A DNA stretch of 64,000 bases from assembly GCA_040879385.1 (NCBI GenBank), contig JBBDKM010000029.1, forward strand, positions 27,661 through 91,660. The letters run 5' to 3'. Shown in pieces: positions 11,235 through 30,765 of the stretch. Made by a program: the position numbers and the translations under genes. The notes below the pieces were generated by a model. The model was given only the letters and a program-made list of their open reading frames with translations. It was not told the origin of the DNA and did no database searches. Each line of letters opens with the position of its first letter. The first letter of the stretch is position 1. Source of the stretch: Thermoanaerobaculia bacterium. GTDB taxonomy: Bacteria; Acidobacteriota; Thermoanaerobaculia; UBA5066; Gp7-AA6.

Positions 11235-12116
11235 CTATCCGAACCGGCCGGTGATGTAGTCCTCGGTGATCTTCTGGCCAGGGTTGGTGAAGATCTTCTC
11301 GGTGCGGTCGTACTCCACCATCCGGCCCAGCATGAAAAACGCCGTCACCTCCGAGACGCGCGCCGCCTGCTGCATGTTGTGCGTCACGATGATGATCGTG
11401 AAGTCCTTCTTCAAGTCGTAGATGAGCTCCTCGACCTTGGACGTGGCGATCGGGTCCAGCGCCGAACAGGGCTCGTCCAGGAGAACGACCTCGGGCTTGA
11501 CCGCGATCGCACGCGCGATGCAGAGGCGCTGCATCTGGCCGCCGGACAGGGAAAGCCCGCTCTCCTGGAGGCGGTCCTTGACCTCGTCCCAGAGGGCCGC
11601 ATCGCGAAGCGACCGCTCGCAGGCCTCGTCGAGGGTCGCCTTGTCCCGCACGCCCTGGATCCGGAGGCCGTAGACGACATTCTCGTAAATCGACTTCGGA
11701 AACGGATTCGACTTCTGGAAGACCATGCCGAAACGCTTGCGCAGCTCGGTCACGTCGACCTTCGGGGCGTAAATGTCCTCACCGTCGAAGAGCACCTTCC
11801 CTTCGATACGGACGCCGTCGATGATGTCGTTCATGCGGTTCAAGCACCGCAGGAGCGTCGATTTTCCGCAGCCGGACGGGCCGATCAGCGCCGTGACCTT
11901 CTTCTCGTGGAACCCGATCGAGATGTCGTAGAGAGCCTGCTTCGCCCCGTAGAAGAGGTTGAGATTCTGGACGTCCAGCACGAGCCGGCCCTTCGAGACC
12001 GCCGCGCCGTCCGCGGCTCCGGGCTCGGAGTGGGCGGCTGCGCCCGTCTCGGGTCGGCGCGTCGCGAGAGTTTCTGGCGAAGCGGGAGCCATCGTTTCCA
12101 TGTCTTCGTTCTTCAT
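11235..12116 (-). CDS. pstB: phosphate ABC transporter ATP-binding protein PstB
   Basis: Walker [10 protein letters not shown], signature LSGGQMQRL, Walker B VVLLDEP. The ATG overlaps the pstA stop (ATGA-type junction at 12116). The longer track ORF upstream is artefact. Confidence 0.95.
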
Positions 12117-16107: not shown

Positions 16108-16124
16108 TCGAACGGGAACCGCGA

Positions 16125-17114
16125 CTACTGGAGCTTGCGAAGTTCCTCAGCGGACACCTTGGCCGGGATCGGGAAGTAGCCGTCCTTGACGACGACCTCC
16201 TGCCCTTCCTTCGAGATCGCGAACTTCAGGAACTCGCGGGTCAGAGGCGAGATCCTGGCCTCGCCGGACTTGAACGGATCGATGGAAACGTAGACGTAGA
16301 GATACCGTGCGAGCGGGTACTTGCCGGACAGCACGTTCTCGTAGCTTTCGGCATAGAACGGCTCTCCCGCCTTCTTCGCGACCTTGATCGCCCTGACGTT
16401 GGAGGTCGTGTAGCCGATGCCCGAGTATCCGACCGCGTACTTGTCCTCGGAGACGCCCTGGACGACCGAGGCGGAGCCGGGCTGCTCTTTGACGGAATCC
16501 TTGTAGTCCCCCTTGAAAAGCGCGACTTCCTTGAAAAAGCCGTAGGTGCCGGACGCCGAGTTGCGGCCGTAGATCGAGATCGGCTTGTTGGCCCACTCCC
16601 CCGTCAACCCCACCTGGCCCCAGGTCGTGACGTCCTCTTTGTAGCCGCCCTTGCGGGTCTTCGAAAAGATCGCGTCGACCTGCTCGAGGGTCAGCTCGGT
16701 CAGCGGGTTGTCCTTGTTGACGTACACCGCGATCCCGTCCAGGGCCGTTCGGATTCCGGTCGGAGGAAAGCCGAATTTGGCCTCGAACTTGTCGATTTCC
16801 TCCTTCTTCATCTTGCGCGACATCGGGCCGAGCTGCGCCGTGCCTTCGATCAGGGCCGGGGGGGCCGTGGAGGATCCCTTGCCCTCGACCTGCACCTTCA
16901 CGTTGGGGTAGTACTTGCGGAAGCCCTCCGCCCACAGAGTCGCGAGGTTGTTCATCGTGTCGCTGCCGATGGAAGAGAGATTGCCCGAGACGCCGGCCGT
17001 TTTCTGATAGACGGTCAGCTTCGGATCCACTTGCAGAGCGCCCTCGGCGGCCAGCAGGACGCCGGCAGCGCCGACGGCGGCGGCGGCCAGACCCAGCTTG
17101 CGAAGTCCCTTCAT
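16125..17114 (-). CDS. pstS: phosphate ABC transporter substrate-binding protein PstS
   Basis: Starts MKGLRKLGLAAAAVGAAG (signal peptide) after the RBS AAGGAG. PBP-type blocks SIGSDTMNNL, GKGSSTAPPALIEG, SASGTYGFF, GYSGIGY. Confidence 0.95.
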   Translation of the reverse strand: MKGLRKLGLAAAAVGAAGVLLAAEGALQVDPKLTVYQKTAGVSGNLSSIGSDTMNNLATLWAEGFRKYYPNVKVQVEGKGSSTAPPALIEGTAQLGPMSRKMKKEEIDKFEAKFGFPPTGIRTALDGIAVYVNKDNPLTELTLEQVDAIFSKTRKGGYKEDVTTWGQVGLTGEWANKPISIYGRNSASGTYGFFKEVALFKGDYKDSVKEQPGSASVVQGVSEDKYAVGYSGIGYTTSNVRAIKVAKKAGEPFYAESYENVLSGKYPLARYLYVYVSIDPFKSGEARISPLTREFLKFAISKEGQEVVVKDGYFPIPAKVSAEELRKLQ

Positions 17115-17140
17115 GATTGGCTCCTTGTTCACGCGTTCAG

Positions 17141-17181
17141 TGTGAAGTTTTCGTGTAAGACACGTTTGAAGTTGGCGTAAA
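17141..17181 (-). promoter_or_regulatory. putative Pho box array upstream of pstS
   Basis: Coding strand reads TTTACG-ccaac-TTCAAA-cgtgtc-TTACAC-gaaaac-TTCACA, ending 26 nt before the ATG (the RBS AAGGAG lies in between). Confidence 0.55.
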
Positions 17182-17199
17182 GCTCCCTGGAAAAGTCGG

Positions 17200-18597
17200 C
17201 TAGAAAAGCAGCTGCGCCTGGACCCGCAATTCCTTGTCATTCTTTGGCTTCTCGCCGTTTGCGCCGTTGGCGTTCTGGTCCCTGATCTGGCCGTAGTCGG
17301 CCTGCAGCTTCCAGTTGTGCCTGTTCATGTACCAGGAAATGGCGCCCCGGATCTCCTTGCGCAGGTCATTATCCCGGTTGGTGTTCGGATCGATCTGCGC
17401 GTAACGCCCGGCGATCTCGAGCTTCTCCGGAATTACGAGGACGCCGGCCTGAGCCGTAAAACCGTTCGAGCGCGTTCGGGCGTTCGCAATATTCCGCACG
17501 GTCTGCGAGTAATACTCGCCGTAGACGAACAGAACTCGCGCCGCCTTGATCACCAGGCTCGCGCCGAGCTCCCTCTCCGTATCCGTTCCGGTCGGAGGAT
17601 CGGTCGTGAGCACCTTCCGGTTGTTGTTGTTGTACTCGACCGCGACCGCCATCCGGAAGTCGTAGCTCTCCAGGTTCGACTCCGAGTAACCCGGGCTTCC
17701 GAACGGGGAGAACGCCAGGCGGGCGACATACTCGTACTTGTCGTTGTCGTTGGCCGCGACGGTGCGGCCGTTGCCGTTGAAGATGGCAAAGCGCCAGTCG
17801 ATCATGTCGGCCACGCCGCCGGGGCCGATCTGGCCCCAGAGCTGCAGGCCGAGCTGCCGGCCCGGAACGAAGAATGCATCCGTGATCGACCGGTCGACGA
17901 ACTGCTGATTTCCGGAAGAGGTCAGCTGCTGCTGAGAGAAGGGCGCCTTGAACTGGCCGATCTTGAGCTGAAAGGCCTTCTTCCCGCCGGTGAAGTCGTA
18001 GTTGATGTTGGCGTCCTGCAGGATGTTCGTCCCGGTCGAGCTGACCTGAGCGACGTCGATCTGCAGCTCGTAGGTCAGCTCCTTGCTGTAGATCCAGCCG
18101 TCCCACTTCATCCGAAACCGGGGAATGCGGAACGAGCCCTTGTCGGACTGCGGGGCGTTGGTGTCCGGATCCTCGTACGTGTAACGGAACTGCGCGCGGT
18201 TGACCCAGTTCATCTCGAACTTCGGGAACGTCAGACGCAGACCCGGCATACGGTACTTGACGTCGAACGGCAGCTTGTAATCGACCGCCTTGACGTCGGT
18301 GGGCGGAGCGTCGGTCTTGCCGTACTTCTTGTTGAACGCGTCGACCGACGCCGGGCCGTCGAACACGACGGTCTCGCCGTTGAGCCCGTAGCCGGGCCGC
18401 GTGACTGTTCCGACCGCGAGCTCCTTCGACGCTTCCCAGGTCTTCTGGGCCTTCTCGGACGAGAACACGTAGATGCGCCCGTCGACCGTGACCTCACGGT
18501 AGTAGGAATCCTGGGCGAGTGCCGGAGCGGAGATCGCGGCAAATGCGATGGCGACAGCCACACACGCGACCCACGCCCTTCGAAATGGATGCTTCAT
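17200..18597 (-). CDS. phosphate-selective porin O/P family outer-membrane protein
   Basis: Starts MKHPFRRAWVACVAVAIAFAAISAPALA (signal peptide) after the RBS GAGGAGG. Beta-barrel-like alternating pattern, C-terminal ...RVQAQLLF. Pho-box array upstream. Confidence 0.88.
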   Translation of the reverse strand: MKHPFRRAWVACVAVAIAFAAISAPALAQDSYYREVTVDGRIYVFSSEKAQKTWEASKELAVGTVTRPGYGLNGETVVFDGPASVDAFNKKYGKTDAPPTDVKAVDYKLPFDVKYRMPGLRLTFPKFEMNWVNRAQFRYTYEDPDTNAPQSDKGSFRIPRFRMKWDGWIYSKELTYELQIDVAQVSSTGTNILQDANINYDFTGGKKAFQLKIGQFKAPFSQQQLTSSGNQQFVDRSITDAFFVPGRQLGLQLWGQIGPGGVADMIDWRFAIFNGNGRTVAANDNDKYEYVARLAFSPFGSPGYSESNLESYDFRMAVAVEYNNNNRKVLTTDPPTGTDTERELGASLVIKAARVLFVYGEYYSQTVRNIANARTRSNGFTAQAGVLVIPEKLEIAGRYAQIDPNTNRDNDLRKEIRGAISWYMNRHNWKLQADYGQIRDQNANGANGEKPKNDKELRVQAQLLF

Positions 18598-18641
18598 GAG
18601 AATCGTCCTCCTCTTTCGAAGGCAGAGTTTCCGTTGAGACG

Positions 18642-18680
18642 GGTCAAGGAGTATGGAAGGCCGCGTAAATTCCATTTGAA
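18642..18680 (-). promoter_or_regulatory. putative Pho box array upstream of the OprO/P porin gene (four hexamers, 11-bp periodicity)
   Basis: Coding strand reads TTCAAA-tggaa-TTTACG-cggcc-TTCCAT-actcc-TTGACC. Hexamers start at plus coordinates 18675, 18664, 18653 and 18642. Confidence 0.6.
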
Positions 18681-18729
18681 GTCGGAGCCCGCCGGTGCGC
18701 CGCACGTTAGTCTCGGGTAGCCGACCGAC

Positions 18730-18756
18730 AAAAAAAGGGCCCCGATTGCTCGGGGC
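18730..18756 (-). terminator. orphan intrinsic-terminator-like hairpin (minus orientation) upstream of the porin promoter
   Basis: Minus strand reads GCCCCG-agcaat-CGGGGC-CC-TTTTTTT. No minus-strand gene lies upstream of it. Confidence 0.5.
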
Positions 18757-18997
18757 GTTGGAAGGACCGTGCAACGCGTGGGGGCCAGATTCCGTCTTGA
18801 ACTTCACCGACTACGTGGAACCAACGGCGACGGATACCCCGACAACCCGGACGCCGACCGCAAGCTGATCATGAACTTCGGAGCCAGCTCCGATCACTAC
18901 GAGGACGGGGCATCGAGCACGACCCTGCTCGAGGACGCGGTCCCGGTCCTGCCCGATCGGGCGGGCGTCGGCGCAAACGGCGGTAGGATCGCCGACG

Positions 18998-19918
18998 ATG
19001 TCCACGAACCCCGCCGCGCCACGTCTGGTCAAGCGCCAACGTCGCCGCACGAGCGCGAACAAGCTTTCCATGCGGCGGGGAGTCCCCCTGAGGGAGGCGG
19101 TCCTCGGGGGCTTCACCCGCATCCTCGCCCACGCACGCTCGGCGGCTCGCCGAGCTTGTGCCGATCCGATCGAATCCGTCCACGACTTCCGCAAGTCGGT
19201 GCGCCGCGCGCGGGCCGTCGTGTCACTCCTGCGGCCGTCGCTCGGGAAGACCGCGGCTGCCGGCATCACGGGCGAGCTGCGGCGCGCCTTCGGCCCGACG
19301 GGAGAGTTGCGAGACACGCACATCCTCCTCGAAACGCTCCGGGAAGTACCGTCCGACGACCCCGCGCGCGATCCGGTCCTCCGCGCGCTCGAAGAGGAAC
19401 CCGGCGGCGACTCCGCGCCGGCCGGGGAGGCGCTCCGCGCCGGGAGCCGAATCCTTCAACCCCTGCCGGGCGTTCTCGGCGTGACGCTGCCCCGCGCGTA
19501 CTCGATGGAGGACCTCGCGCGCGGTATCGCCCGCGGCTGGCGGCGCACGCGCCGCGCGCTCGAGCGCGCCGCGTCGACGGGCCTCGACGCCGATTTTCAC
19601 GAGTGGCGCAAACGCGTCAAGGAGCTCCGCTACCAGGTCGAGCTGCTCGCGTCGACCGGCAGCGCCGAGCTCAAGCGCCAGGAAAAGGCCCTCTCCGCGC
19701 TGGCCGAGGAGCTCGGCCGGGTCACCGACCTGATCGTCCTGCGGTCTGCGCTCGCGTCGCGGCAGGAACGGGGATCCCTCCCGGCCGCACCGGGCTTGAT
19801 GGAGAGCATTCGGTCGGCAATCGGGGAGCGTTCGCGGGAGCTCCTCGCGCGCGGACGGGAGGCTTTCGCCGAGCCCCACAAAGAGTTCGCCCGCCGGGTC
19901 CTCGCGGAACGCGGCTGA
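18998..19918 (+). CDS. CHAD domain-containing protein
   Basis: Repeated conserved-histidine helices VHDFRKSVRRARAVVSLL and FHEWRKRVKELRYQVELL. Located directly upstream of ppk1. Confidence 0.85.
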   Translation: MSTNPAAPRLVKRQRRRTSANKLSMRRGVPLREAVLGGFTRILAHARSAARRACADPIESVHDFRKSVRRARAVVSLLRPSLGKTAAAGITGELRRAFGPTGELRDTHILLETLREVPSDDPARDPVLRALEEEPGGDSAPAGEALRAGSRILQPLPGVLGVTLPRAYSMEDLARGIARGWRRTRRALERAASTGLDADFHEWRKRVKELRYQVELLASTGSAELKRQEKALSALAEELGRVTDLIVLRSALASRQERGSLPAAPGLMESIRSAIGERSRELLARGREAFAEPHKEFARRVLAERG

Positions 19919-20100: not shown

Positions 20101-22221
20101 ATGAGCGAAGTTCATTTCATCGGTGGGAAGGTCACTCCGGACGACCGTCTCGAGGACCACGCCCTCTATTTCAACCGCGAGATCTCATGGCTCGCTTTCA
20201 ACCGGCGGGTCCTCGAAGAGGCGCTCGACCCGGCGTGGCCGTTGTTCGAGCGCGTGAAGTTCCTGGCGATCTTCCACTCGAACCTCGACGAGTTCTTCAT
20301 GATCCGAGTCTCGGGCCTGCACGAGCAGCTCGAGGCGGCCGTGACCGAGCGCAGCGCCGACGGGCTCTCGGCCCCGGAGCAGCTGCGGATGATCCGCGAG
20401 ATCGTTCTCCAGGACGCCGGGCTCGCCATGAAGACGCTGACGGGAGATCTCCAGCCCCGGCTGGCGGACGCGGGCGTGCGCATCCTGCCGTGGGACGAGA
20501 TCGAGCCGGAGCGCCGCAAGGAGCTGGCGTCCTACTTCGACAGCGTCGTCTTCCCGGTCCTGACGCCTCTCGCGTTCGACCCCGCTCACCCGTTCCCGTT
20601 CGTGTCGAACCTCTCGCTCTCCCTCGCCGTGGAACTGTCGGAGAAAAAGGAAAAGCGCGCTGCCTTCGCCCGCGTCAAGGTGCCCCCCTCGCTCTCCCGC
20701 TTCGTTCCGATCCCCGGCGCGCCCGGCAAGACGCTCGAGTTCGTCCTTCTCGAGAATCTCGTGGAAGCGAACCTGGACCGGCTCTTCCCCGGCATGGAGA
20801 TCCTCGGCGCGTCCGCCTTCCGCGTCACGCGCGACGCCGACATCGAGATCCGGGAGGATGAGGCTGGCGATCTCCTCCGGAGCATGACGGACAACCTGCG
20901 GCGGCGGAGATTCGGCGCCGCGATCCGCCTCGAGGTCGAGGAGCGCTGCCCGGAGAACGTCCGGGAGCTCCTCCGCGGGCAGCTCGAGCTCGAGCCCGAC
21001 GACGTGTACGCCGTCGATGGGCCGCTCGGCGCGGCTGACCTGCTGTCCGTGATGAAGCTCGACCTCCCCAATCTGAAGGATGCGCCGTTTCTTCCGTCCG
21101 CTCGATCGATCTTCGACGCGCCCGCCGACCCGTTCGAGGCGATCCGGAAGGGCGACATCCTCATGCACCACCCCTACGACTCTTTCGACCCCGTCCTCCG
21201 GTTCCTCGAGGCGGCGGCGGAGGACAAGGACGTCCTCGCCATCAAGATGACGCTCTACCGGGTCGGCGCAGACTCCCCCATCGTCGTGGCCCTGGCTCGC
21301 GCCGCGGAGAACGGCACGCAGGTCGCGGTCTTAGTCGAGCTCAAAGCGCGCTTCGACGAGGAGAACAACATCCAGTGGGCGCGGTCGCTCGAGCGCGCCG
21401 GCGTGCACGTGGCGTATGGCGTCGGAGGTCTGAAGACCCACGCCAAGATCGCTCTCGTCGTGCGGCGCGAGGGCCAGGTGATGCGCCGCTACGTGCACGT
21501 CGGGACCGGCAACTACAACCGTCTCACCGCTCGCGTCTACACCGACATCGGCCTCTTCACGGCCCGCGCCGACTTCGGTCACGACGCCTCCGAGCTCTTC
21601 AACTTCCTGACCGGCTTCTCGAAGAAGACGAAGTACCGCCGCCTCGCGGTGGCGCCCTTCGCTCTCCACGACCGGGTCATCGCGCTGATCGATCACGAGG
21701 CCGAGAAGGCGCGGCAGGGGAAGCCCTCCGCCATCGTCGCGAAGATGAACGCCCTGGTGGACCCGTCCGTGATTCGGGCGCTTTACCGCGCCTCCCGGGT
21801 GGGCGTCTCCATCGACCTCGCCGTCCGCGGGATCTGCTGCCTGCGCCCCGGCGTGCCGGGTGTCTCCGAGGGGATCCGCGTCTCGAGCGTCGTCGGCCGA
21901 TTCCTCGAGCACAGCCGGGTGTTCTCGTTCGGCGTCGGAGACGAGGAGGAGATCTACATCTCCAGCGCCGACTGGATGCCCCGCAACTTCTACCGCCGCG
22001 TCGAGATCATGACCCCGATCCTCGACCAGAAGGCCCGCGAGAAGATTCGCCAGGAGGTCCTGGACCCCATCCGCGCCGACAACACGCGCGCATGGGACCT
22101 TCAGAGCGACGGGACCTACGTGCGGCGCCACCCCGCGCCGGGAGAGGCGCCCTTCGACACGCAACAGAACCTGCTCGATCGGCTGGCGAGACGGGGACTC
22201 AAGGCCGTTCCGGCGCTGTGA
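20101..22221 (+). CDS. ppk1: polyphosphate kinase 1
   Basis: MSEVHFIGG..., LYFNREISWLAFNRRVLEEA, FHSNLDEFFMIRV, and two PLD-like H-x-K regions (LKTHAKIALVVR, FLEHSRVFSF). The 5' extension of the track ORF (18769..20100) is not part of the gene. Confidence 0.97.
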   Translation: MSEVHFIGGKVTPDDRLEDHALYFNREISWLAFNRRVLEEALDPAWPLFERVKFLAIFHSNLDEFFMIRVSGLHEQLEAAVTERSADGLSAPEQLRMIREIVLQDAGLAMKTLTGDLQPRLADAGVRILPWDEIEPERRKELASYFDSVVFPVLTPLAFDPAHPFPFVSNLSLSLAVELSEKKEKRAAFARVKVPPSLSRFVPIPGAPGKTLEFVLLENLVEANLDRLFPGMEILGASAFRVTRDADIEIREDEAGDLLRSMTDNLRRRRFGAAIRLEVEERCPENVRELLRGQLELEPDDVYAVDGPLGAADLLSVMKLDLPNLKDAPFLPSARSIFDAPADPFEAIRKGDILMHHPYDSFDPVLRFLEAAAEDKDVLAIKMTLYRVGADSPIVVALARAAENGTQVAVLVELKARFDEENNIQWARSLERAGVHVAYGVGGLKTHAKIALVVRREGQVMRRYVHVGTGNYNRLTARVYTDIGLFTARADFGHDASELFNFLTGFSKKTKYRRLAVAPFALHDRVIALIDHEAEKARQGKPSAIVAKMNALVDPSVIRALYRASRVGVSIDLAVRGICCLRPGVPGVSEGIRVSSVVGRFLEHSRVFSFGVGDEEEIYISSADWMPRNFYRRVEIMTPILDQKAREKIRQEVLDPIRADNTRAWDLQSDGTYVRRHPAPGEAPFDTQQNLLDRLARRGLKAVPAL

Positions 22222-22255
22222 CCCGACCACCAGAGGCAGACCCCCGACAGTGGGG

Positions 22256-22276
22256 AACGCCGGTACTCCGGCGTTT
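22256..22276. terminator. hairpin between convergent ppk1 and GT21 genes
   Basis: AACGCCGG-tact-CCGGCGTT followed by T. Perfect 8-bp stem; the U-tract is weak in both directions. Confidence 0.45.
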
Positions 22277-22289
22277 ACCCACCGGCGGG

Positions 22290-23429
22290 CTACGCCGCCT
22301 TCCGCAGGATCCGCGTCTCCTTCCCGATTACAAGCGGCCTTCCCCGCCACGCGACGCCGCGTCCCAGAAGGCCCGCCCAGAACACGGCGGCGGCCCCCAG
22401 GTCCCGCAGCGGGAGGACGGCCGCGTCGCGCCACGACAGGGCCCCGGACCCGCGGGGCGCCGAGAAGAGCTCGATCCCCCAGCGCAGGGCGAGCAGGGCG
22501 CCCGCGGCGACCCGCGCTCCCGCAGAGGGCGCGGCCATCGCCGCCGCGAACCAGAGCAGCGGGCTCGCCAGGAGCTCGCCGGCGTAGAGAGGGCCCCCCA
22601 GCCGGCGGCGCATCATGGCCCAGCGGCGGTGCCTCTCCCACACCGGCCGGGCTCGCTTCCGCACTTCGGTCGTGTCCAGGTCGTCGGCCGACAGCGCCAC
22701 CCGATAGCCCGCGCGGCGCACGGCCCGGCCGAGCAGAAAATCCTCCGCGAGGTAATCGCGCAGGACCGCGATCCCGCCGGTCGCCTGGAGCGCGCGTTGC
22801 GAGACGAGAATCGACTTGCCCACGACGCACGGCAGGTCGAGCAGTCCCGCGACCAGGGCGGTCCCCGGCTGCAGGCACCCGTTCAGGTACGACGCCTCCA
22901 GCCGTGAGGCGAGGCTCACCGGTCCGGCCGCGCGGAAGAGGTGCGACACGAGCCCGACGGAGGGATCCGCGAAAAACGCCACGGCGCGTCCGAGAAAATC
23001 GGGCCGGACCCGGACGTTGCCGTCCGAGAACAACACCAGCCGGTGCCGCGCGAAACGCAGCGCCGCCGCGAGACGGTTGACCTTCGCGTTGCCGCCCGGC
23101 TCCCGGGCGTCGAAGACGAAGATCGACCGGACCCCTGGATGGCGGTCGGCGACCGCCCGCGCGACGCGGTATGCCGGATCGTCCCCGGAGGCGAAGGAGA
23201 AGATCACCTCGTACGCCTCGTAGTCCAGGCGGTAGAAGGACTCCAGGTTCTCCGCGAGCTCCTCGTCGATCCCGCACAGCGGTTTGACGATCGAGACCGG
23301 CGGGGCGAAGCCGGGGACGGCCGCGCGCGGGCCGGATCGGCGAAGCCGGGCGCGGGCTGCGACCGACAGCGCGTAGACCGCGGCCGACAGCGCGAGCCCG
23401 GCGAGCCCGATCGTCGCCACGGCGTTCAC
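22290..23429 (-). CDS. membrane glycosyltransferase, GT2/GT21 (ceramide glucosyltransferase / Pgt / HpnI-like)
   Basis: N-terminal TM, SIVKPLCGIDEELAENL, GGNAKVNRL, FSDGNVRV, and WERHRRWAMMRRR (Q/RxxRW-type motif) followed by C-terminal TM helices. The GTG start at 23429 overlaps the stop of the PHP gene (GTGA). Confidence 0.85.
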   Translation of the reverse strand: MNAVATIGLAGLALSAAVYALSVAARARLRRSGPRAAVPGFAPPVSIVKPLCGIDEELAENLESFYRLDYEAYEVIFSFASGDDPAYRVARAVADRHPGVRSIFVFDAREPGGNAKVNRLAAALRFARHRLVLFSDGNVRVRPDFLGRAVAFFADPSVGLVSHLFRAAGPVSLASRLEASYLNGCLQPGTALVAGLLDLPCVVGKSILVSQRALQATGGIAVLRDYLAEDFLLGRAVRRAGYRVALSADDLDTTEVRKRARPVWERHRRWAMMRRRLGGPLYAGELLASPLLWFAAAMAAPSAGARVAAGALLALRWGIELFSAPRGSGALSWRDAAVLPLRDLGAAAVFWAGLLGRGVAWRGRPLVIGKETRILRKAA

Positions 23430-24148
23430 GCCGTCGCCGCCGCCTGTCCCGGTGTGAGCCGCAGGACGCCGATCCCGGTGCCGCGCTTGAGCGCCGCCAG
23501 GACGGCCTCGTGCGTCTTGTCGGCGTTCAGAAGCGTCTTCCAGGCGTAGAGGTGCTCCGGGCGGTGGAAGTCGCTGTTGGCCATGTGCGGCAGGCTCTCG
23601 CGCGACACGACCGGAAAGAGCTCCCAGCGGCAGCCGACCTCCCAGAGGTGAACGAGGTCTCCGACAAACTTTCGTCGATTCCAGAGGTACCAGGTGTTCG
23701 CGTACCACTCGCTCATCTCGTGCGGGTGGCCGGCGACCGAGACGGCGCCCCGGACCTGGATCTCGCGCAGCATTTCGAGCGGGTCGCCGTCGGCCGAAAG
23801 GTATTCGTCGAGGCCGAGCGCGAGCGCGTGGACCGAGGTGTCCCGGTTGATCGTGTTGCGGGTCATCTCGGCTCCGGGGATGACGAGCATCCGATAGGCG
23901 TGCCAGGCGCGCTCCGCCTCGCGGTCGATCTCCTCGACGTAGCGCTTCCAGGTCTCGGGATTCAGGCTGTTACCGATCCGATGCGCGATCTTTCCCAGAG
24001 AGTTGTCCCGATTGACGATGTGATCGGTGATCGCGATGACGTCGTGGCCCGTCTGACCGAAGAGGTCCACGACTTTAGGAAGCGGCAGGACGCCGTCCGA
24101 GTAGGTCGTGTGGATGTGAAAGTCGCAGAGCAACATGTGCTTGGCCAT
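23426..24148 (-). CDS. PHP domain-containing metallo-phosphoesterase
   Basis: LLCDFHIHTTYSDG, VIAITDH, HALALG, VAGHPH. Alternative starts at 24175 (GTG) and 24136 (ATG). Pho-box-like hexamers upstream. Confidence 0.85.
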   Translation of the reverse strand: MAKHMLLCDFHIHTTYSDGVLPLPKVVDLFGQTGHDVIAITDHIVNRDNSLGKIAHRIGNSLNPETWKRYVEEIDREAERAWHAYRMLVIPGAEMTRNTINRDTSVHALALGLDEYLSADGDPLEMLREIQVRGAVSVAGHPHEMSEWYANTWYLWNRRKFVGDLVHLWEVGCRWELFPVVSRESLPHMANSDFHRPEHLYAWKTLLNADKTHEAVLAALKRGTGIGVLRLTPGQAAATA

Positions 24149-24194
24149 TCTCGGCGGCAAGCGCGAAGCGGGCACGAGGGCCGCGGGTAGGCCG

Positions 24195-24228
24195 CTGAAA
24201 GAACGTGTAAGAAGACTGTGAAGCGAAG
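24195..24228 (-). promoter_or_regulatory. putative Pho box upstream of the PHP-GT21 gene pair
   Basis: Coding strand reads CTTCGC-TTCACA-gtcttc-TTACAC-gttc-TTTCAG. It contains the same CTTCACA and CTTACAC heptamers as the pstS promoter. Confidence 0.5.
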
Positions 24229-24232
24229 GCCG

Positions 24233-24739
24233 TCAGGAGGCCGGGGCCAGGCCCGGCCGCTTCACGGGCGGCGGCAGGCGGCCCACGCGCGTCGGGACCA
24301 GAGGCGAGGATCCGCGGGACCGCGGCGCGCGCTGCCTCGTCCGCCACCAGGCGACCCAGAACCGCCGGGCCTGCGCGGGCGATTCGACGTTCTCGAGCCG
24401 GTACACCTTCAGGTCGGCCGACTTGACCTCGGCGGACTTCGCGGAGGGCGAATACACGATGTGGACAGGCAGCGGCACGTCGCCCCGCAACGGAAATGAG
24501 AACCGGAACCGCTCCGCGTCGGGCGCCTGGCGCAGGTCTCTCGAGAAGCCCGAAAGCGGGACCGACCGCTCCGGCTCCAGGTGCGCCACGGCGGTCCACC
24601 CGGCCTCGCGGAATTCGCAGTCGTGCCGGCGCCCGCATCGGCATCGCAGCTCGCGATGGGCGCCCGCGACACCCTCCTCGTTCAGGACGAGAGTCACGCC
24701 GCACTCGCAGCGGCCCGCGGCGTCGGTCCTCTCGGCCAT
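24233..24739 (-). CDS. hypothetical protein with N-terminal CxC...CxC zinc-ribbon-like motif and basic C-terminal tail (168 aa)
   Basis: MAERTDAAGRCECGVTLVLNEEGVAGAHRELRCRCGRRHDCEF... G/C-rich third positions throughout. Pho-box-like CTTCAC-N5-CTTCAT, then 10 nt, then TACGCT, then 7 nt, then ATG. No family recognised. Confidence 0.55.
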   Translation of the reverse strand: MAERTDAAGRCECGVTLVLNEEGVAGAHRELRCRCGRRHDCEFREAGWTAVAHLEPERSVPLSGFSRDLRQAPDAERFRFSFPLRGDVPLPVHIVYSPSAKSAEVKSADLKVYRLENVESPAQARRFWVAWWRTRQRAPRSRGSSPLVPTRVGRLPPPVKRPGLAPAS

Positions 24740-24762
24740 GACGCGGAGCGTAGGAGAGCCCC

Positions 24763-24779
24763 ATGAAGAGGGCGTGAAG
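24763..24779 (-). promoter_or_regulatory. putative Pho box upstream of the zinc-ribbon hypothetical gene
   Basis: Coding strand reads CTTCAC-gccct-CTTCAT (11-bp spacing), then 10 nt, then TACGCT (24747..24752), then 7 nt, then the ATG at 24739. Confidence 0.5.
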
Positions 24780-24827
24780 ATTCCGGAGGCTCGCTGGCCG
24801 CCGCGGCCGGAGCCCATAATCGTCGCC

Positions 24828-25646
24828 GTGAAGGGTCTGCCGGACTACCACGTGCACACGTTCCGGTGCGGACACGCCGGCGGGAGCTCGCGGGATTTCG
24901 TCCTCCGGGCGATCGACCGCGGCCTCGCGGAGATCGCCTTCACCGACCATATCCCGCTGTACTTCCTGCCCGAGGCCGACCGCGATCCGAAGCTCGCGAT
25001 GCGTGAGGACCAGTTCGAGGGCTACGTTCGGGAGGTCGAGGCCCTGGGTGAGGAGTTCGCCGGGCGGATCGCCGTGCGGCTGGGGATCGAGGCGGACTAC
25101 GCCGAGGGCCGCGAGGACGAGCTCGGCCGGTGGCTCTCCCGCGCGGACTGGGACCTCGTGCTCGGCTCGGTCCACTGGGTCGCGGGGGGTTGGATCGACG
25201 ATCCGGACAGCTCCCCGCGCCGCTTCGCGAGCGAGGGGACCGAGAGGCTCTACGACGAGTACTACCGGCTCCTCGCCCGCGCGGCCCGGACGGGCTATTT
25301 CGACGTCCTCACGCATTTCGATCTGCCCAAGAAGTTCGGCCACCGCCCGGAAGCGCCGCGGACGGGAGCGGAGCGCGGGGCGATCGCCGCTGCGAAGGAG
25401 GCCGGCTGCGCCGCCGAGATCTCCTCGGCCGGGCTGCGCAAGCCGGTCGCCGAAGCTTATCCGGAGCCGCGCCTGCTCCGGGAGATCGTGGCCGCCGGGA
25501 TTCCCGTTACGTTCGCTTCGGACGCCCACGCACCCGCCGAGGTCGGCTGGGGCTTCGAGCGGACGCTGGAGCTCGCGCGGGGCGCCGGGGCGGGCGAGTA
25601 CGTCACGTTCGCGAAGAGACGGAAAACGGCGCATCCGCTTCCCTGA
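24828..25646 (+). CDS. histidinol-phosphatase (HisJ) family PHP phosphoesterase
   Basis: VKGLPDYHVHTFRCGHA..., IAFTDHIPL, GIEADY, GSVHWV, THFDLPKKFG, ASDAH. GTG at 24828 lies 7 nt after CATAAT. An alternative in-frame GTG is at 24774. Confidence 0.85.
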   Translation: MKGLPDYHVHTFRCGHAGGSSRDFVLRAIDRGLAEIAFTDHIPLYFLPEADRDPKLAMREDQFEGYVREVEALGEEFAGRIAVRLGIEADYAEGREDELGRWLSRADWDLVLGSVHWVAGGWIDDPDSSPRRFASEGTERLYDEYYRLLARAARTGYFDVLTHFDLPKKFGHRPEAPRTGAERGAIAAAKEAGCAAEISSAGLRKPVAEAYPEPRLLREIVAAGIPVTFASDAHAPAEVGWGFERTLELARGAGAGEYVTFAKRRKTAHPLP

Positions 25647-25686: not shown

Positions 25687-26352
25687 CTAGGGCAGCTCCG
25701 ACGCGTGGTGCTTCACCCAGCGGGCCTCGGCCATGAAGATCGTGTCTTCGCAGATGTTGGTGGCGAGGTCCCCGACGCGCTCCAGGTTCTTCGAGATCGA
25801 GATGAGCTCGATGCAGTAGGTCGTCAGAGCCGGGTACTCCGCGATGTAGGTCAAGAGCTCCCGGATGATCGAGACGTTTTTCTCGTCGAGAATGTCGTCC
25901 TTCTTGATGACCTTGCGCGCCAGCTCGGCATCCCGGTTGACGAAGGCGTCGAGCGACTGCTTGAGCATCGACTCGGCGACCTCGGCCATGTACGGGATGT
26001 CGATGAACGGCTTGAACGGCCGCTGGCCCGCCAGTCGCTCGGCACCTTCCGCGATGTTTACGGCATGGTCGCCAATCCGCTCCAGATCGTTGTTGATCTT
26101 GAGAACGGCCACGAGGAGCCGGAGGTCCACGGCGACCGGCTGCTGGAGTGCGAGGAGCGCGATCGCGGAGTCCTCGATGCCCAACTCCATCCGGTCGATG
26201 TCCTCGTCGGCGGCGATCACCGAGCGCGCCTTCTCGGCGTCCATCTCGGTTAAGGCCTCGATCGAACGGTGGATCTGCCGCTCGACCTCGCCGCCCATGA
26301 GGATGAGCTGGCGGCGGAGATCTTCGAGTTGCTCGGAAAAGTGCTCTTTCAC
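25687..26352 (-). CDS. phoU: phosphate signalling complex protein PhoU
   Basis: Two PhoU repeats (NDLERIGDHAVNIA and KNLERVGDLATNI). GTG start 7 nt after the ppx stop, with GAGG in between. Confidence 0.95.
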   Translation of the reverse strand: MKEHFSEQLEDLRRQLILMGGEVERQIHRSIEALTEMDAEKARSVIAADEDIDRMELGIEDSAIALLALQQPVAVDLRLLVAVLKINNDLERIGDHAVNIAEGAERLAGQRPFKPFIDIPYMAEVAESMLKQSLDAFVNRDAELARKVIKKDDILDEKNVSIIRELLTYIAEYPALTTYCIELISISKNLERVGDLATNICEDTIFMAEARWVKHHASELP

Positions 26353-26359
26353 GCTCGCC

Positions 26360-27958
26360 TCAGCTCCACAGCGCCTCGGCCGAAAGGATCTCCAGGTCCT
26401 TCTGCAGGACCTCCTCGGCGCGCTCCGTGGGAACCGCGCGGAACGCCGCGGAGCGATCGAAGACGCGCTCGAAGAGGCCCGATTTCTTGCGCGCCGCCGA
26501 GAGCTCCGGCTCGCAGTCGGCCCGGGCGCTCGCCTCGAACTCGATCTTGCGCGACCGCACGCGGCAGGACACGCCCGTGACGACCTGGCGGTGGCTCCGG
26601 TCCAGACCGTCGGCGATCCGGAGGATCGCGGCGAGCTTCTCGACCGCGGCCTGCAGATACGGGTTGAGGCGGCGCCAGTTGTCGTGGGAGGCCCTGGGCC
26701 GCCCGCCCTTGTGATAGCGCGCGAGAGACGCCAGCACCTCGATCTCGTCGGCCGAGAAGCCCGTCAGGTCTCCGTGCGTGATCAGGTAATAGGAGTGCCT
26801 CTGGTGCTTCGAGTAGCCGATGTAGCAACCAATGTCGTGGAGCAGCGCCCCGTACTGGAGCCACTCCCGCTCGGCCGCCGTCAACTGGTGAAGCGCGTGC
26901 GTCTGGTCGAAGATCTCCAGCGCGAGGCGCGCGACGTGCGCCGCGTGGAGAACCTCGGCGTTGCCGCGCCGGAGCAACCGGTCGACACTGCGAGCCCGCA
27001 TGTCGCGGTTGACGGGGATGCGCGTCTCGCCGTGCCGCGCCACGTAGTCGAGCAGCAGGCCCTCCCGGAGGCCCCGCTCCCCGACGAGAATCGCGTCGGC
27101 TCCGGTGCGCTTGAGGACCCAGGCGAGCAGGATGCCGCCCGGGACGGCGATGTCGCGCCGCCGCGGATCGAGGCCGGGGACGCGGAGCTTCTCCTTCTCG
27201 GTCGTCTTGCGCAGAAGGCGGTTGACCTTCTTCAGGCCGGCGCGCGTGAGGGTGCGGTGGCCGGTGGGGCTCGGCTCCCGGCCGAGCACCGCGGCCTCGT
27301 GGACGAGCGAGAGCGATTGGATCGTGCCGGAGGAGCCCACGCAGGTCTTGAAGCCTTTCTTTCGCACGGCGTCGGCGGCGCGCCGGCCCACCCGCCGGAT
27401 CGCCTTCTTCATCGCCTTCCGGTCCTTGTCCGAAGGGGGATCGTTGCGGCCAAAGCGGTCGACGAGGCGAACGACGCCGAGGGGCAGGCTCTCGGTCGAG
27501 AGCACGCGCGAGCCGTCGGAGATGACGAGCTCGGTCGAGCCGCCGCCGATGTCCACGAGGAAGAGCGGGTCCTGCTGGGCGGGGAACTCGCTCCGGAGAG
27601 CGAGGTTGATCAGCCGCGCCTCCTCCTCTCCGGAGATGACGTCGACGCGCACGCCGGTGCGCTTCTTGACCGCCTGGACGAAGTCGTCCGCGTTGGCGGA
27701 CTCCCGCACGGCGCAGGTGGCCACGGCCCGGACAACCTCCGCGCCGGAGGACTCGGCGAGCTTGACCAGGTGCTCGACGGTCGACGCTCCCGCTTCGATG
27801 GCCTCGGGCGACAGGCGCCCCGTCCGGAGCGTCTCGCTGCCCAGGCGAACCATGGCCTTCTCGCGCGACAGGACCTCGAGGGTTCCGTCGTCCTCCACGT
27901 TGGCGACCAGCAGCTTGATGCTGTTGGTGCCGATGTCGATGGCGGCGAGGGTCCGCAT
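26360..27958 (-). CDS. ppx: exopolyphosphatase Ppx/GppA family with C-terminal HD domain
   Basis: Starts MRTLAAIDIGTNSIKLLV. Also DIGGGSTE, GSSGT and ALLHDIG. The upstream part of the track ORF is artefact. Confidence 0.95.
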   Translation of the reverse strand: MRTLAAIDIGTNSIKLLVANVEDDGTLEVLSREKAMVRLGSETLRTGRLSPEAIEAGASTVEHLVKLAESSGAEVVRAVATCAVRESANADDFVQAVKKRTGVRVDVISGEEEARLINLALRSEFPAQQDPLFLVDIGGGSTELVISDGSRVLSTESLPLGVVRLVDRFGRNDPPSDKDRKAMKKAIRRVGRRAADAVRKKGFKTCVGSSGTIQSLSLVHEAAVLGREPSPTGHRTLTRAGLKKVNRLLRKTTEKEKLRVPGLDPRRRDIAVPGGILLAWVLKRTGADAILVGERGLREGLLLDYVARHGETRIPVNRDMRARSVDRLLRRGNAEVLHAAHVARLALEIFDQTHALHQLTAAEREWLQYGALLHDIGCYIGYSKHQRHSYYLITHGDLTGFSADEIEVLASLARYHKGGRPRASHDNWRRLNPYLQAAVEKLAAILRIADGLDRSHRQVVTGVSCRVRSRKIEFEASARADCEPELSAARKKSGLFERVFDRSAAFRAVPTERAEEVLQKDLEILSAEALWS

Positions 27959-27994: not shown

Positions 27995-28022
27995 GTGAAG
28001 ACGGTGTGAAGAGCGCGTGAAG
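27995..28022 (-). promoter_or_regulatory. putative Pho box array: three perfect CTTCAC hexamers at exact 11-bp spacing in the ppx / CHAD divergent promoter
   Basis: Plus strand reads GTGAAG at 27995, 28006 and 28017. On the ppx coding strand this is CTTCAC-N5-CTTCAC-N5-CTTCAC. Putative -10 GAGAAT (27968..27973) lies 9 nt before the ppx ATG. Confidence 0.65.
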
Positions 28023-28058: not shown

Positions 28059-28868
28059 GTGCGCGAACCCGCCTCGCTCTGGAAGCTCCGCGCCGCGTCC
28101 CTGGAACGGGCGCGCAAGGCGCTCGAGCGCGGCGACCCCGAGGGCCTCCACGATCTGCGCGTCGCGCTCCGGCGGCTGAGTGCCACCGCGAGCGCGCTCG
28201 GAAAGAAGCGCCTCTCGCGCGAGGCCCGCGCGATGGCGCGCTCTCTGGCGCCGCAGCGTCAGCTCGAGGTCGACCGTCAGCTTCTCGCGCGGGTCGGACG
28301 TCTTGGTTTTCTCTCACCGGACGCCGTGACCGCGCTCGCGGCGCGCTGGGAGAAGCTGGCCGCCCGCGGCGACCGCCGCCTCGCGCGCGCCGGCGACGGG
28401 CGAGCGATCCACGGCCTCGTCCGGAGCGTCGGCCGCCTCGCGCACCGGAAGAGGAGTCCAGGCGCGGATCGCATCGCGCGCGCCCGCCGGCGCGCCGAAG
28501 AATCTCTCGGACGGTCGCTCGAGGGCCGGGACGACGCGGCGCTTCACCGTTATCGCCTCGCGGTCAAGAAGGCGCGCTACCTGGCCGAGGACCTCTACGC
28601 CATGGGCCTCGCCGAGTGGAAGACGCACGCGGCGCGCGAGAGGGCCCTGCAGGAGACCCTCGGCCGCTGGAACGACCTGAGAATGTTCTGCCGCCGCCTC
28701 GCCGAGAGTCGCGTGGAAGCCGAGGAGCGCGGCTCGATCGGGCTCGCCTCGGAGCTCGAGCACCTCCTCGCGGCTCTCGAGCCGGCGATCGCCTCGGTCC
28801 GAGGCAGCGCCGTCGAGGCGTCCCGCCAGACGGCCAGCGTCGTGCCGATCACGCTTCGGTCCGCCTAG
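28059..28868 (+). CDS. CHAD domain-containing protein (second copy)
   Basis: LHDLRVALRRLSATASAL and LHRYRLAVKKARYLAEDL conserved-His helices. The GTG start lies 8 nt after a perfect TATAAT. Confidence 0.8.
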   Translation: MREPASLWKLRAASLERARKALERGDPEGLHDLRVALRRLSATASALGKKRLSREARAMARSLAPQRQLEVDRQLLARVGRLGFLSPDAVTALAARWEKLAARGDRRLARAGDGRAIHGLVRSVGRLAHRKRSPGADRIARARRRAEESLGRSLEGRDDAALHRYRLAVKKARYLAEDLYAMGLAEWKTHAARERALQETLGRWNDLRMFCRRLAESRVEAEERGSIGLASELEHLLAALEPAIASVRGSAVEASRQTASVVPITLRSA

Positions 28869-28968: not shown

Positions 28969-30765
28969 ATGAGCTTCCCGACCGACAGCGGCGGAAAAGA
29001 GCGGCCGGACGACGCGCGCACAGACGACACTCAGTCCACGCGCGCCCGGGTCAGCACGGGGCCCTTCTCCGACCCGGAGTTTCGCCGTTTGATCGGACAG
29101 TCGCCGGTCGGAACCTACGTGATCCAGGACGAGCGGTACCGCTACGCCAACCCGAAGCTCACCGCCCTTCTCGGCTACTCGGAGCAGGACCTCCTCGGCT
29201 TTTCCTCCATCACCTCTCTCGTGGCCCCCGAAGACCGGGCCGCGGTCCTCGCGCGGATCCAGCGAGCCCTCGCCGGCGTACCGTCCGACGGCCCGTACGG
29301 CTTCGGGATGATCCGGCGGGACGGGGAGCGGATCGAGGTGGAGGTCTACGAGTCCGCGGCGGAATCGGCGGGGCGGACCGCGATCGTCGGGACGCTCCTC
29401 GATGTCACCGAGCGCCGGCGTGCCGAGGCGCACAACGTGGACCGGGCGTTCGTCGACCCGCTGACGAAGCTCCCCAATCGGGTCCGCTTCATGGAAAGAC
29501 TGGAGCTCGAGCTGGCGCAGGCGCGGCGGCACGAGCGCCGGCTCGCGATCGTCTCGCTGAACCTCGACCGGTTCAAGTTCATCAACGATCACTTCGGACA
29601 TTCCGTGGCGGACCATCTGCTGCAGTCTCTGGCCCTGCGCCTCAAACGGGGAGTCCGGGAAGTGGACGTGGTCGCGCGCGTCGCCGGGGACGAGTTCCTC
29701 GTCCTGGTTCCCGACCTGCGCCGGAGCGCGGACATGGGCCGGTTCGCCCAGAAGCTGCTCTCGCTGACCGCCCGACCGTTCGAGTTCAACGGCCGCACGA
29801 TCGAGGTCACGTCCTCGATCGGCGTGGCGACGTACCCCGACGACGGCCAGGACGCCGACACGCTCCTGCGCAGCGCCGACGCCGCGATGGACCGGGCCAA
29901 GGAGCTCGGCAGCAACAACTTTCAGCTCTGCACGCCCGAGCTGACCGCCATGGCCTTCGAGCGGCTGGACCTGCAGAACGGCCTGCGGCTCGCCCTGGAC
30001 CGCGAGGAGCTCGTTCTGCACTACCAGCCGCTCGTGAGCCTGCACACGGGGAGGATCGTGGGTCTCGAGGCCCTCGTCCGCTGGCAGCACCCGCAGCGCG
30101 GGCTCGTCATGCCCGGAGCGTTCATTCCGGCGGCCGAAGAAACCGGGCTCATCCTGCCGCTCGGGGAGTGGGTCCTCGCCACCGCCTGCAAGCAGCTGAA
30201 GGCCTGGGACGAGACGGGGCTGGGCCTGCGGATGGCCGTCAACTTCTCGGCCCGCCAGTTCCGGGAGCGCGGCCTCGTCCAGACCGTGGAAAGAGCGGTT
30301 TCGGAGGCGGGGCTCGAGCCCCGGAACCTGGAGATCGAGATCACCGAGTCGATCGCGATGGAGGGCGCCGAGATCGTCGTCACGAACCTGAATCAGCTGC
30401 GCGCCATGGGCGTCGGGATCGCGATCGACGACTTCGGCACGGGCTACTCGTCGCTGAGCTACCTCAAGCGCTACCCGATCACCTCGCTGAAGATCGACCG
30501 CTCGTTCGTGTCGGATCTCCCGACCAATCCGGCGGACGCCGGCATCGTGCGGGCGATCGTGGCGCTGGCCCACGGTTCCAACCTGAGCGTCATCGGGGAA
30601 GGGGTGGAGACGAAGGAGCAGTTCCTCCGACTGCAGGAGTACGGCTGCGACGAGATGCAGGGCTACTGGGTCAGCCGGCCCCTGCCGGAGGAGGGCGTCA
30701 CGCAGCGCCTGACCGACGAGATCGCACTCTGGAAGCAGGGAGACCCGCGCACCCCTACGCCGTAG
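28969..30765 (+). CDS. PAS-GGDEF-EAL cyclic-di-GMP signalling protein
   Basis: PAS region, then the GGDEF domain (RVAGDEFLVL), then the EAL domain (EALVRWQHP, DDFGTGYSSLSYL, EGVET). Confidence 0.95.
   Translation: MSFPTDSGGKERPDDARTDDTQSTRARVSTGPFSDPEFRRLIGQSPVGTYVIQDERYRYANPKLTALLGYSEQDLLGFSSITSLVAPEDRAAVLARIQRALAGVPSDGPYGFGMIRRDGERIEVEVYESAAESAGRTAIVGTLLDVTERRRAEAHNVDRAFVDPLTKLPNRVRFMERLELELAQARRHERRLAIVSLNLDRFKFINDHFGHSVADHLLQSLALRLKRGVREVDVVARVAGDEFLVLVPDLRRSADMGRFAQKLLSLTARPFEFNGRTIEVTSSIGVATYPDDGQDADTLLRSADAAMDRAKELGSNNFQLCTPELTAMAFERLDLQNGLRLALDREELVLHYQPLVSLHTGRIVGLEALVRWQHPQRGLVMPGAFIPAAEETGLILPLGEWVLATACKQLKAWDETGLGLRMAVNFSARQFRERGLVQTVERAVSEAGLEPRNLEIEITESIAMEGAEIVVTNLNQLRAMGVGIAIDDFGTGYSSLSYLKRYPITSLKIDRSFVSDLPTNPADAGIVRAIVALAHGSNLSVIGEGVETKEQFLRLQEYGCDEMQGYWVSRPLPEEGVTQRLTDEIALWKQGDPRTPTP

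Follow-up and report, generated by a model that had tools for sequence, protein, structure and literature searches.

The gene pair

The stretch of DNA analysed here, which we call the window, is 64 kb of a contig from a metagenome-assembled genome (MAG) of Thermoanaerobaculia (Acidobacteriota), with 67-72% G+C. Two neighbouring genes in it, both on the minus strand, encode a phosphoesterase of the PHP superfamily, which we name PHP1, and a membrane glycosyltransferase (GT) of family GT21. They are part of a phosphate (Pho) and polyphosphate locus of about 22 kb, delimited by Pfam and NCBIfam scans at about 6.9 to 28.9 kb of the window. We suggest that the pair may help to replace phospholipids by phosphorus-free glycolipids when phosphate is scarce. 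Its two members are:

22290-23429, minus strand: GT21 membrane glycosyltransferase (Pfam PF13506)
23426-24148, probable start 24136, minus strand: PHP1, a TM0559-type PHP phosphoesterase (Pfam PHP; structure 2ANU)

Both open reading frames (ORFs) have a G+C content at third codon positions of the coding type (0.88 and 0.91). The sequence GTGA at 23426-23429 (minus strand) holds the stop codon of PHP1 and the start codon of the GT21 gene, and this 4-nt overlap predicts translational coupling of the two. An earlier note on this DNA had reported the overlap, the two ORFs and the motifs SIVKPLCG, FSDGNV and WERHRRW in the glycosyltransferase, and all are present as it described them.

The two proteins

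From ATG 24148 the PHP1 ORF encodes 240 amino acids (aa), and from ATG 24136 it encodes 236. The latter is probably the true start, since homologues begin at MLLCDFH and ATG 24148 overlaps a conserved GCCGAnAAT block that is discussed with the promoter below. The match of PHP1 to Pfam PF02811 would be marginal if taken alone (26.5 bits against a gathering score of 26.4, in the N-terminal part only). The match to TM0559 of Thermotoga maritima (PDB 2ANU) is of a different order, with a phmmer E-value of 2.7e-46 and 37% identity over residues 5-231. An AlphaFold2 model (mean predicted local distance difference test score 83.9, predicted template modelling (TM) score 0.85) has the distorted (beta/alpha)7-barrel expected of a PHP fold, and Foldseek places 2ANU first among its matches at a TM-score of 0.83-0.91. 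Far lower TM-scores are reached by the matches that follow, PHP proteins that are either uncharacterised or directed at nucleotides. The set of PHP ligand motifs (HxH, D, DH, E, H, HPH, D-x-H) was looked for in an alignment of relatives together with TM0559, where the metal ligands H11, H13, D18, D42, H43, E94, H107, H141, D193 and H195 are invariant. PHP1 is a member of the TM0559-like subfamily and, as such, a metal-dependent phosphoesterase of the PHP superfamily. No transmembrane segment was found in it, and it is predicted to be soluble or peripheral.

The glycosyltransferase has 379 aa and matches Glyco_transf_21 (PF13506) with an E-value of 4.3e-39 over model positions 1-173 of 174. Its best match of solved structure is ceramide glucosyltransferase (4e-31 against the PDB). 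The [QR]xxRW motif is present as RHRRW at residue 266, the N-terminus holds a transmembrane segment (residues 1-27), and the C-terminal third is hydrophobic. It belongs to GT21 and has the fold of ceramide glucosyltransferase and of the processive enzyme Pgt; its predicted activity is that of a lipid beta-glycosyltransferase. The family labels that the earlier note gave to both proteins are upheld by these matches.

Conservation of the pair

Eighty genome loci from Acidobacteriota and Nitrospirota were fetched with the alignment of PHP1 relatives. At 78 of them the PHP gene is followed directly, on the same strand, by a GT21 gene; of the two exceptions one is a contig end and the other a locus with no detected GT. 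The pair persists in Thermodesulfovibrio, Nitrospira and Dissulfurispiraceae, where identity has fallen to 45-48% (PHP) and 30-36% (GT), and the 4-nt stop/start overlap is shared by 49 of 79 loci. The ppk1, ppx, CHAD and PHP2 genes that surround the pair in the window (listed below) are limited to the close clade. When 27 distant loci were clustered, the recurrent neighbours were a glycosidase of family GH1, PhoR/PnpS-like and PhoB-like proteins, pstSCAB, phoU and GGDEF/EAL genes, and in other phyla the pair adjoins phoBR, pst, phoU and porin genes. Conservation of the pair beside Pho genes, which the earlier note had listed among the checks on its proposal, is seen well outside the Acidobacteriota.

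The GH1 gene deserves separate mention as a partner that the earlier note had missed. At about 72 of the 80 loci (for example L003, 7385-8665; L077, 6160-7443; L090, 5552-6943) no more than 10 kb separate it from the PHP gene. Its product matches the GH1 family of Pfam at 7e-86 with both catalytic Glu motifs present, and is predicted to be cytoplasmic. Its place in the close clade is between phoU and PHP2. No GH1 gene was found anywhere in the 64-kb window, which is one of the few exceptions. A GH1-PHP-GT21 trio also occurs on one contig of Deltaproteobacteria, next to a phosphate porin, an OlsB-like acyltransferase, a diacylglycerol-kinase-like gene, a glycerophosphodiesterase (GDPD) and PhoU_div.

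Two further observations concern neighbours of the module. A GGDEF/EAL (cyclic di-GMP) protein recurs near it in Thermoanaerobaculia; its counterpart in Nitrospirota is a CBS-GGDEF-EAL protein (L076, 6802-8643; L077, 8076-9837). In Thermodesulfovibrio sp. N1, an isolate that has GH1 together with PHP-GT21, two ORFs share this protein between them. In Thermodesulfovibrio a YfcE-family metallophosphoesterase gene directly follows that of GT21 (L077, 11877-12593; L074, 3537-4247). We considered such an enzyme as a general PlcP-like partner and dropped the idea, as it is found at only two of the 80 loci.

Predicted Pho control

The earlier note had pointed to two heptamers common to the promoters of PHP1 and pstS. 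Both are there: CTTCACA at 24217-24223 and 17141-17147, and CTTACAC at 24205-24211 and 17153-17159, with the PHP1 site given first in each case. Taken singly they are not significant in the window (4 occurrences against 2.2 expected, and 3 against 0.9). The paired pattern CTTMMAM-N5-CTTMMAM, in contrast to the single heptamers, has four matches where 0.13 would be expected, and three of the four fall at pstS (two overlapping) and at PHP1. Both heptamers turn out to be part of a direct-repeat array phased at 11-12 bp. A scan for at least two phased units of TTCA[CAT], CTTAC or TTTAC finds six such arrays in the 64 kb against 0.67 expected, and all six are in promoter regions of Pho-related genes. 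They are listed here, followed by a -10-like element of the PHP1 promoter:

24162-24223, minus strand: Pho-box-like operator of PHP1-GT21, repeats phased at 11-12 bp (scans and alignment)
17141-17181, minus strand: array of the pstS promoter, the reference site for the motif (pattern and array scans)
18638-18681, minus strand: porin array, five units phased at 11 bp (the scan detects 18665-18680)
27995-28021, minus strand: ppx-phoU array, three TTCAC units (array scan)
24763-24778, minus strand: Pho-box-like pair in the 34-bp gap between ORF168 and PHP2 (array scan)
8654-8681: array of PhoU_div-PHO4, three units, on the strand opposite to its genes, unlike the other five
24147-24152, minus strand: -10-like hexamer GAGAAT (family consensus GCCGAnAAT), overlapping ATG 24148

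In the operator of the pair the units are CTTCACA and CTTACAC at the positions given above, CTTTCAG at 24195-24201, two degenerate units, and CTTCGCG at 24162-24168. An alignment of 49 PHP1 promoters from Thermoanaerobaculia has conserved blocks at steps of about 11 bp (CTTCAc/cTTAC/TTTtC/CTTTTC/CCTCG/CTTCGCG), followed, 12-20 nt before the ATG of MLLCDFH, by the GCCGAnAAT block. It is from this block that GAGAAT may be read as a -10-like element. A scan of the operon region for a sigma-70 -35/-10 pair found none, which is expected as the promoter is read as activator-dependent. More distant Thermoanaerobaculia and Nitrospirota have analogous TTnAC/GTAAC repeats upstream of both PHP and pstS. 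With a strict regular expression, at least two phased half-sites were found upstream of PHP in 23% of 78 loci against 2.8% of controls; this signal is only moderate, and the alignment of 49 promoters is the more informative of the two.

The layout of the array is that expected of a site for an activator of the PhoB/PhoP type, which would bind it. The operon is predicted to be under Pho control, and the membership in the Pho regulon that the earlier note had proposed gains support in silico from the six arrays, the 49 aligned relatives and the Pho neighbours elsewhere.

The surrounding genes

The rest of the locus, as far as the scans of Pfam and NCBIfam resolve it, is as follows:

6925-7956, minus strand: PHO4 (PHO4/PitA-type) transporter
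7999-8658, minus strand: PhoU_div (DUF47)
8689-10524, minus strand: PhoR-like kinase
10460-11218, minus strand: PhoB-like regulator
12116-13765, minus strand: pstA
13762-16053, minus strand: pstC
16123-17112, minus strand: pstS (start as called in the source MAG; the mechanical ORF is 16125-17240)
17200-18807, minus strand: phosphate porin of the OprO/P type
18998-19918, plus strand: CHAD gene
20101-22221, plus strand: ppk1, convergent with GT21
22243-22289, minus strand: strong stem-loop in the convergent spacer of GT21 and ppk1 (folding)
24233-24739, minus strand: ORF168, no Pfam or NCBIfam match
24774-25646, plus strand: PHP2, HisJ-family histidinol-phosphatase-like (NF005596, 304 bits against a cut-off of 202)
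25687-26352, minus strand: phoU
26360-27958, minus strand: ppx
28059-28868, plus strand: CHAD gene
28969-30765, plus strand: GGDEF/EAL gene

The earlier note had placed the pair between ppk1 and ppx-phoU. The position is right, while ORF168 and PHP2, which intervene on the ppx-phoU side, had been left out. ORF168 is a small conserved protein with homologues in 39 related loci (40-63% identity). PHP2 is divergent from it and keeps its position next to PHP1 in the close clade. A longer, 407-aa reading of PHP2 (24423-25646) was rejected because homologues of ORF168 also occur elsewhere, away from PHP2, in some relatives, and the N-terminal extension of that reading is taken as an antisense shadow of ORF168. 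One may speculate that PHP2 is a phosphatase for head-group phosphoalcohols in phosphate starvation rather than an enzyme of the histidine pathway.

The spacer between GT21 and ppk1 (about 68-71 nt) folds at -39.3 kcal/mol with a z-score of -2.6. Its stem-loop is a candidate bidirectional terminator lacking a T tract; the terminator scan did not flag it. A CHAD gene stands at either side of this part of the locus: the first is immediately upstream of ppk1, the second divergent from ppx. This suggests that polyphosphate-granule proteins and Pho genes are regulated together. Both permease ORFs of the Pst system (PstC-like, 763 aa; PstA-like, 549 aa) greatly exceed the normal length, and BPD_transp_1 is confined to their C-terminal parts. 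At 1916-3046 (minus strand), some 4 kb away from the Pho locus, there is a gene for a GT4-type glycosyltransferase (Glycos_transf_1); GT4 is the family of the Agt glycolipid synthases.

The PHP family at large

An exhaustive search among representatives at 50% identity found 863 relatives. Many of these are 480-680 aa long and carry the PHP domain at the C-terminus, and those of about 640-680 aa are fusions of MGDG_synth/GT28 with PHP. Their N-terminal domain matches a processive diacylglycerol beta-glucosyltransferase (9wde) at 8.6e-29 and Arabidopsis MGD1 (4wyi) at 6e-28, and some are annotated by JGI as 'processive 1,2-diacylglycerol beta-glucosyltransferase'. The fusions are full length and lie on many independent contigs of Verrucomicrobiota and Methylacidiphilales. 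Before one Verrucomicrobial fusion (L088, 1114-5274) there are genes for a phosphatidylethanolamine-binding protein (PF01161) and a lipase maturation factor (LMF1). A different fusion, of 646 aa (P0300), joins a TM0559-like PHP domain at its N-terminus to a receiver and a histidine kinase (PHP-REC-HisKA-HATPase). An apparent PHP-GT21 fusion of 493 aa (P0251) lacks the C-terminal third of PHP and the N-terminal transmembrane segment of the GT, and comes from a single 3-kb contig; it probably reflects a deletion or a fault of assembly, and we do not use it as evidence.

In a neighbour-joining tree the family falls into three clades: that of the GT21 operons, that of the GT28 fusions, and a stand-alone clade which contains TM0559 proper. 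They differ in the segment that follows the DH metal ligand. In the stand-alone clade it is highly charged (median best 11-aa hydropathy -0.2). The GT21-operon clade has an amphipathic segment (0.37) and the GT28-fusion clade a hydrophobic one (1.26), both with an LG[KR] motif. The neighbourhoods of the stand-alone members of T. maritima, Aquifex, Methermicoccus, Desulfobacterales, Latescibacteria and Freyarchaeum were uninformative. One stand-alone member is found on a contig of WOR-3 (L091, 4648-12438) in the order pstS-methylglyoxal synthase-PHP-pstC-pstA-pstB-phoU, followed by a response regulator and a histidine kinase; putatively, two enzymes that liberate inorganic phosphate are embedded there in a phosphate-transport operon. 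TM0559 itself is mentioned in the literature twice, both times incidentally, and full-text searches found no paper that ties PHP-family proteins to diacylglycerol, phospholipase, phosphatidate phosphatase or glycolipid synthesis.

A hypothesis for the function of the pair

The following scheme would account for these observations. Under phosphate starvation a PhoB-type regulator would bind the phased repeats and switch on the two-gene operon. PHP1, a soluble or peripheral enzyme with the trinuclear metal centre of the TM0559 family, would strip phosphatidate or a phospholipid of its phosphate-containing head and so yield diacylglycerol and, whether directly or indirectly, inorganic phosphate. 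GT21 would then move a hexose from a uridine diphosphate (UDP)-sugar to the released diacylglycerol, and the product, a phosphorus-free beta-glycosyl glycerolipid, would stand in for phospholipid in the membrane. In most relatives GH1 might complete the module by transglycosylation to oligoglycosyl lipids, in the manner of plant SFR2, or might alternatively break the glycolipid down once phosphate returns. As a family of retaining beta-glycosidases, GH1 would fit a beta-glycolipid made by an inverting GT21. That PHP1 makes diacylglycerol from phosphatidate or a phospholipid and GT21 glycosylates it seems to us about as probable as all other possibilities together.

The fusions of the same PHP domain to GT28 are strong new support in silico for a glycolipid role of PHP1. 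GT21 has a GT-A fold and GT28 a GT-B fold; the two are unrelated, and each is physically tied to the same PHP clade. What they have in common is a UDP-sugar as donor and diacylglycerol as acceptor, and characterised members of both families make glycosyl-diacylglycerols (PMC8231724, PMC3972451). Since two unrelated folds of glycolipid synthase have recruited one PHP clade, a common substrate is suggested, likeliest diacylglycerol that has been released from phosphatidate or phospholipid. A role in producing diacylglycerol is the likeliest for PHP1 because of the Pho-box context, the precedent of plcP-agt and the hydrophobic loop in the GT-linked clades. More generally, gene order and fusions across five bacterial phyla suggest that this PHP family supplies the phosphate-free lipid backbone for glycolipids.

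PHP1 could be a phosphatidate phosphatase equally well as a phospholipase C. The former would release inorganic phosphate directly and match the monoesterase chemistry that is common in small PHP enzymes. The latter would have to be followed by another phosphatase, and here one may speculate about the neighbouring PHP2. A wider claim, which we think somewhat less likely than not, is that the TM0559-type PHP proteins form a class of lipid phosphate phosphohydrolases not recognised so far, acting as phosphatidate phosphatase or as phospholipase C and recruited independently by GT21 in operons of Acidobacteriota, Nitrospirota and Deltaproteobacteria and by GT28 in fusions of Verrucomicrobiota.

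Several points weigh against the proposal that PHP1 makes diacylglycerol. A substrate is not known for any protein of the TM0559 family. Among characterised PHP structures the closest ones reach TM-scores of only about 0.45-0.5, and their substrates are nucleotides or RNA (RNase AM, pAp phosphatase) or histidinol phosphate. The wider TM0559 family is mostly stand-alone, archaea included, and seven stand-alone members, from Thermotoga, Aquifex, archaea and other sources, lack lipid or GT genes in their neighbourhood. Such contexts, together with the WOR-3 protein that sits in a pst operon with no GT, fit a general hydrolase for scavenging inorganic phosphate. GT21 and GT28 also have the by-product UDP in common, and fusions alone do not separate supply of the acceptor from removal of that product. 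The acceptor could be ceramide or another lipid. Finally, the regulation of the operon is predicted from motifs.

Other explanations

The alternative that survives best, though we consider it rather unlikely, is that PHP1 is a phosphohydrolase for a soluble substrate, merely co-regulated or co-localised with the GT. It might hydrolyse the UDP left by the GT, or another nucleotide, easing product inhibition and regaining phosphate; or it might dephosphorylate phosphoethanolamine or glycerol-3-phosphate freed by a separate phospholipase. The substrates of characterised PHP enzymes (nucleotides or an amino-alcohol phosphate), the release of UDP by both GT families and the WOR-3 operon, where the PHP gene lies beside methylglyoxal synthase, would all agree with it. 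According to PMC3972451, the phosphatases that process the head-group phosphoalcohols once PlcP has acted had yet to be identified, and in Thermodesulfovibrio the YfcE-type enzyme after the GT could cleave the lipid. However, that enzyme is too rare among the loci to be a general answer, and for phosphoalcohols the neighbouring HisJ-type PHP2 is a better candidate. A hydrophobic or amphipathic loop beside a metal ligand, as seen in the GT-linked clades, is not required for a soluble substrate. Nor do we know of any precedent for a nucleotide phosphatase that is fused or translationally coupled to a bacterial GT.

It is also conceivable, if improbable, that the acceptor of the GT is a hopanoid, a ceramide (as for a bacterial glucosylceramide synthase) or a polyprenol and that PHP1 handles a phosphorylated intermediate of that pathway. 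The earlier note had offered an HpnI-like enzyme acting on hopanoids as its own alternative. HpnI (TIGR03472 equivalog) is indeed the best NCBIfam model for the GT, at 239 bits, and ceramide glucosyltransferase is its nearest solved structure; moreover, Pgt takes ceramide in vitro (PMC3972451). Nevertheless, 239 bits is below the equivalog cut-off of 310, as is the score of the Thermodesulfovibrio GT (231). No hopanoid or sphingolipid genes are found among the recurrent neighbours in the 27 distant loci, and in the close clade hopanoid genes are likewise not recurrent. Score and gene context together led us to reject the HpnI/hopanoid reading. Against any acceptor of this group stands the fusion evidence, in which the PHP clade is independently joined to a homologue of diacylglycerol glycosyltransferases.

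Very improbable is a role of the pair in polyphosphate or exopolysaccharide metabolism rather than in renovation of membrane lipids (with, for example, PHP1 as a phosphatase of polyphosphate or its granules and the GT as a processive beta-glucan synthase under the neighbouring GGDEF/EAL protein), for although the pair is flanked in the close clade by ppk1/CHAD and ppx/CHAD, a GGDEF/EAL gene recurs nearby in two phyla and GH1 could trim a beta-glucan, the polyphosphate genes are gone from the neighbourhood in all distant clades while PHP, GT21 and GH1 are still together, the GT is a small GT21 protein with neither the multi-transmembrane channel nor the PilZ features of glucan synthases, and the GT28 domain of the fusions is homologous to glycolipid synthases. 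Both this role and an acceptor other than diacylglycerol are less likely than the production of diacylglycerol by PHP1 for GT21.

Implications

Exchanging phospholipids for glycolipids is one of the major ways in which bacteria respond to scarcity of phosphorus. The machinery known for it (PlcP together with Agt or Pgt) is mostly that of Proteobacteria, and the locus described here points to a non-homologous version in Thermoanaerobaculia, Nitrospira, Thermodesulfovibrio and Verrucomicrobiota, lineages that are abundant in soil, sediment and wastewater. A testable function can be offered for a widespread family whose crystal structure, 2ANU, was deposited in the PDB by 2005 and carries no statement of function. 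If PHP1 does make diacylglycerol, it would be a new enzyme class for the supply of this lipid to glycolipids, a step that is poorly defined in many bacteria and in archaea. On the wider claim made above, the stand-alone members of Thermotoga, Aquifex and archaea could be the phosphatase still missing in the supply of diacylglycerol or archaeol for glycolipids, and the GH1-PHP-GT21 trio and the GT28-PHP fusion could serve as metagenome markers of lipid renovation under phosphorus stress.

Comparison with known systems

In SAR11, roseobacters, Sinorhizobium and Pseudomonas, PlcP and Agt, encoded in a Pho-regulated operon, convert phospholipid to diacylglycerol and then to glycosyl-diacylglycerol under phosphorus stress (PMC8231724, PMC4796936). 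As in that system, the window has a metal-dependent phosphoesterase and a glycosyltransferase in one operon, for which Pho regulation is predicted. The phosphoesterase, however, is a PHP (beta/alpha)7-barrel and not a calcineurin-like metallophosphoesterase, the glycosyltransferase is GT21 (GT-A) where Agt is GT4 (GT-B), and relatives of the operon have GH1 as an extra conserved partner. Judged by its sequences, then, the operon is an analogue of PlcP-Agt and not a member of it, both proteins being non-homologous.

Operons of plcP with agt exist, and Pgt, a characterised GT21 enzyme with a predicted Pho box, prefers diacylglycerol over ceramide; it is processive and makes beta-hexosyl-diacylglycerols under phosphate deprivation (PMC8231724, PMC3972451). 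With Pgt of Agrobacterium tumefaciens and Mesorhizobium loti our GT has in common the family GT21 and, by prediction, the Pho box. Unlike for our GT, no coupling to a PHP gene is described for Pgt, and PlcP is credited with providing its diacylglycerol. To HpnI, the bacteriohopanetetrol glucosamine glycosyltransferase, the GT is similar in broad GT2/GT21-like architecture; its context, in contrast, is one of Pho genes (plus GH1 in relatives) with no hopanoid genes.

PHP1 belongs to the same subfamily as TM0559 of T. maritima and has all its metal ligands in common with it. TM0559 and its nearest relatives, unlike PHP1, stand alone, with neither GT nor Pho neighbours and with a charged loop after DH.

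In plants the phosphohydrolases of the phosphate-starvation galactolipid pathway (NPC/PAH, working with the MGD/DGD synthases) are of the LPP, HAD and NPC types where PHP is found here, and SFR2 is a GH1 galactolipid transglycosidase that acts on glycolipids, a role that bacterial GH1 may or may not parallel. The logic would nonetheless be the same: a lipid is dephosphorylated to diacylglycerol, which is then glycosylated. The likeness to the plant pathway extends to the Verrucomicrobial fusions, in which the partner of the PHP domain is a homologue of MGD1.

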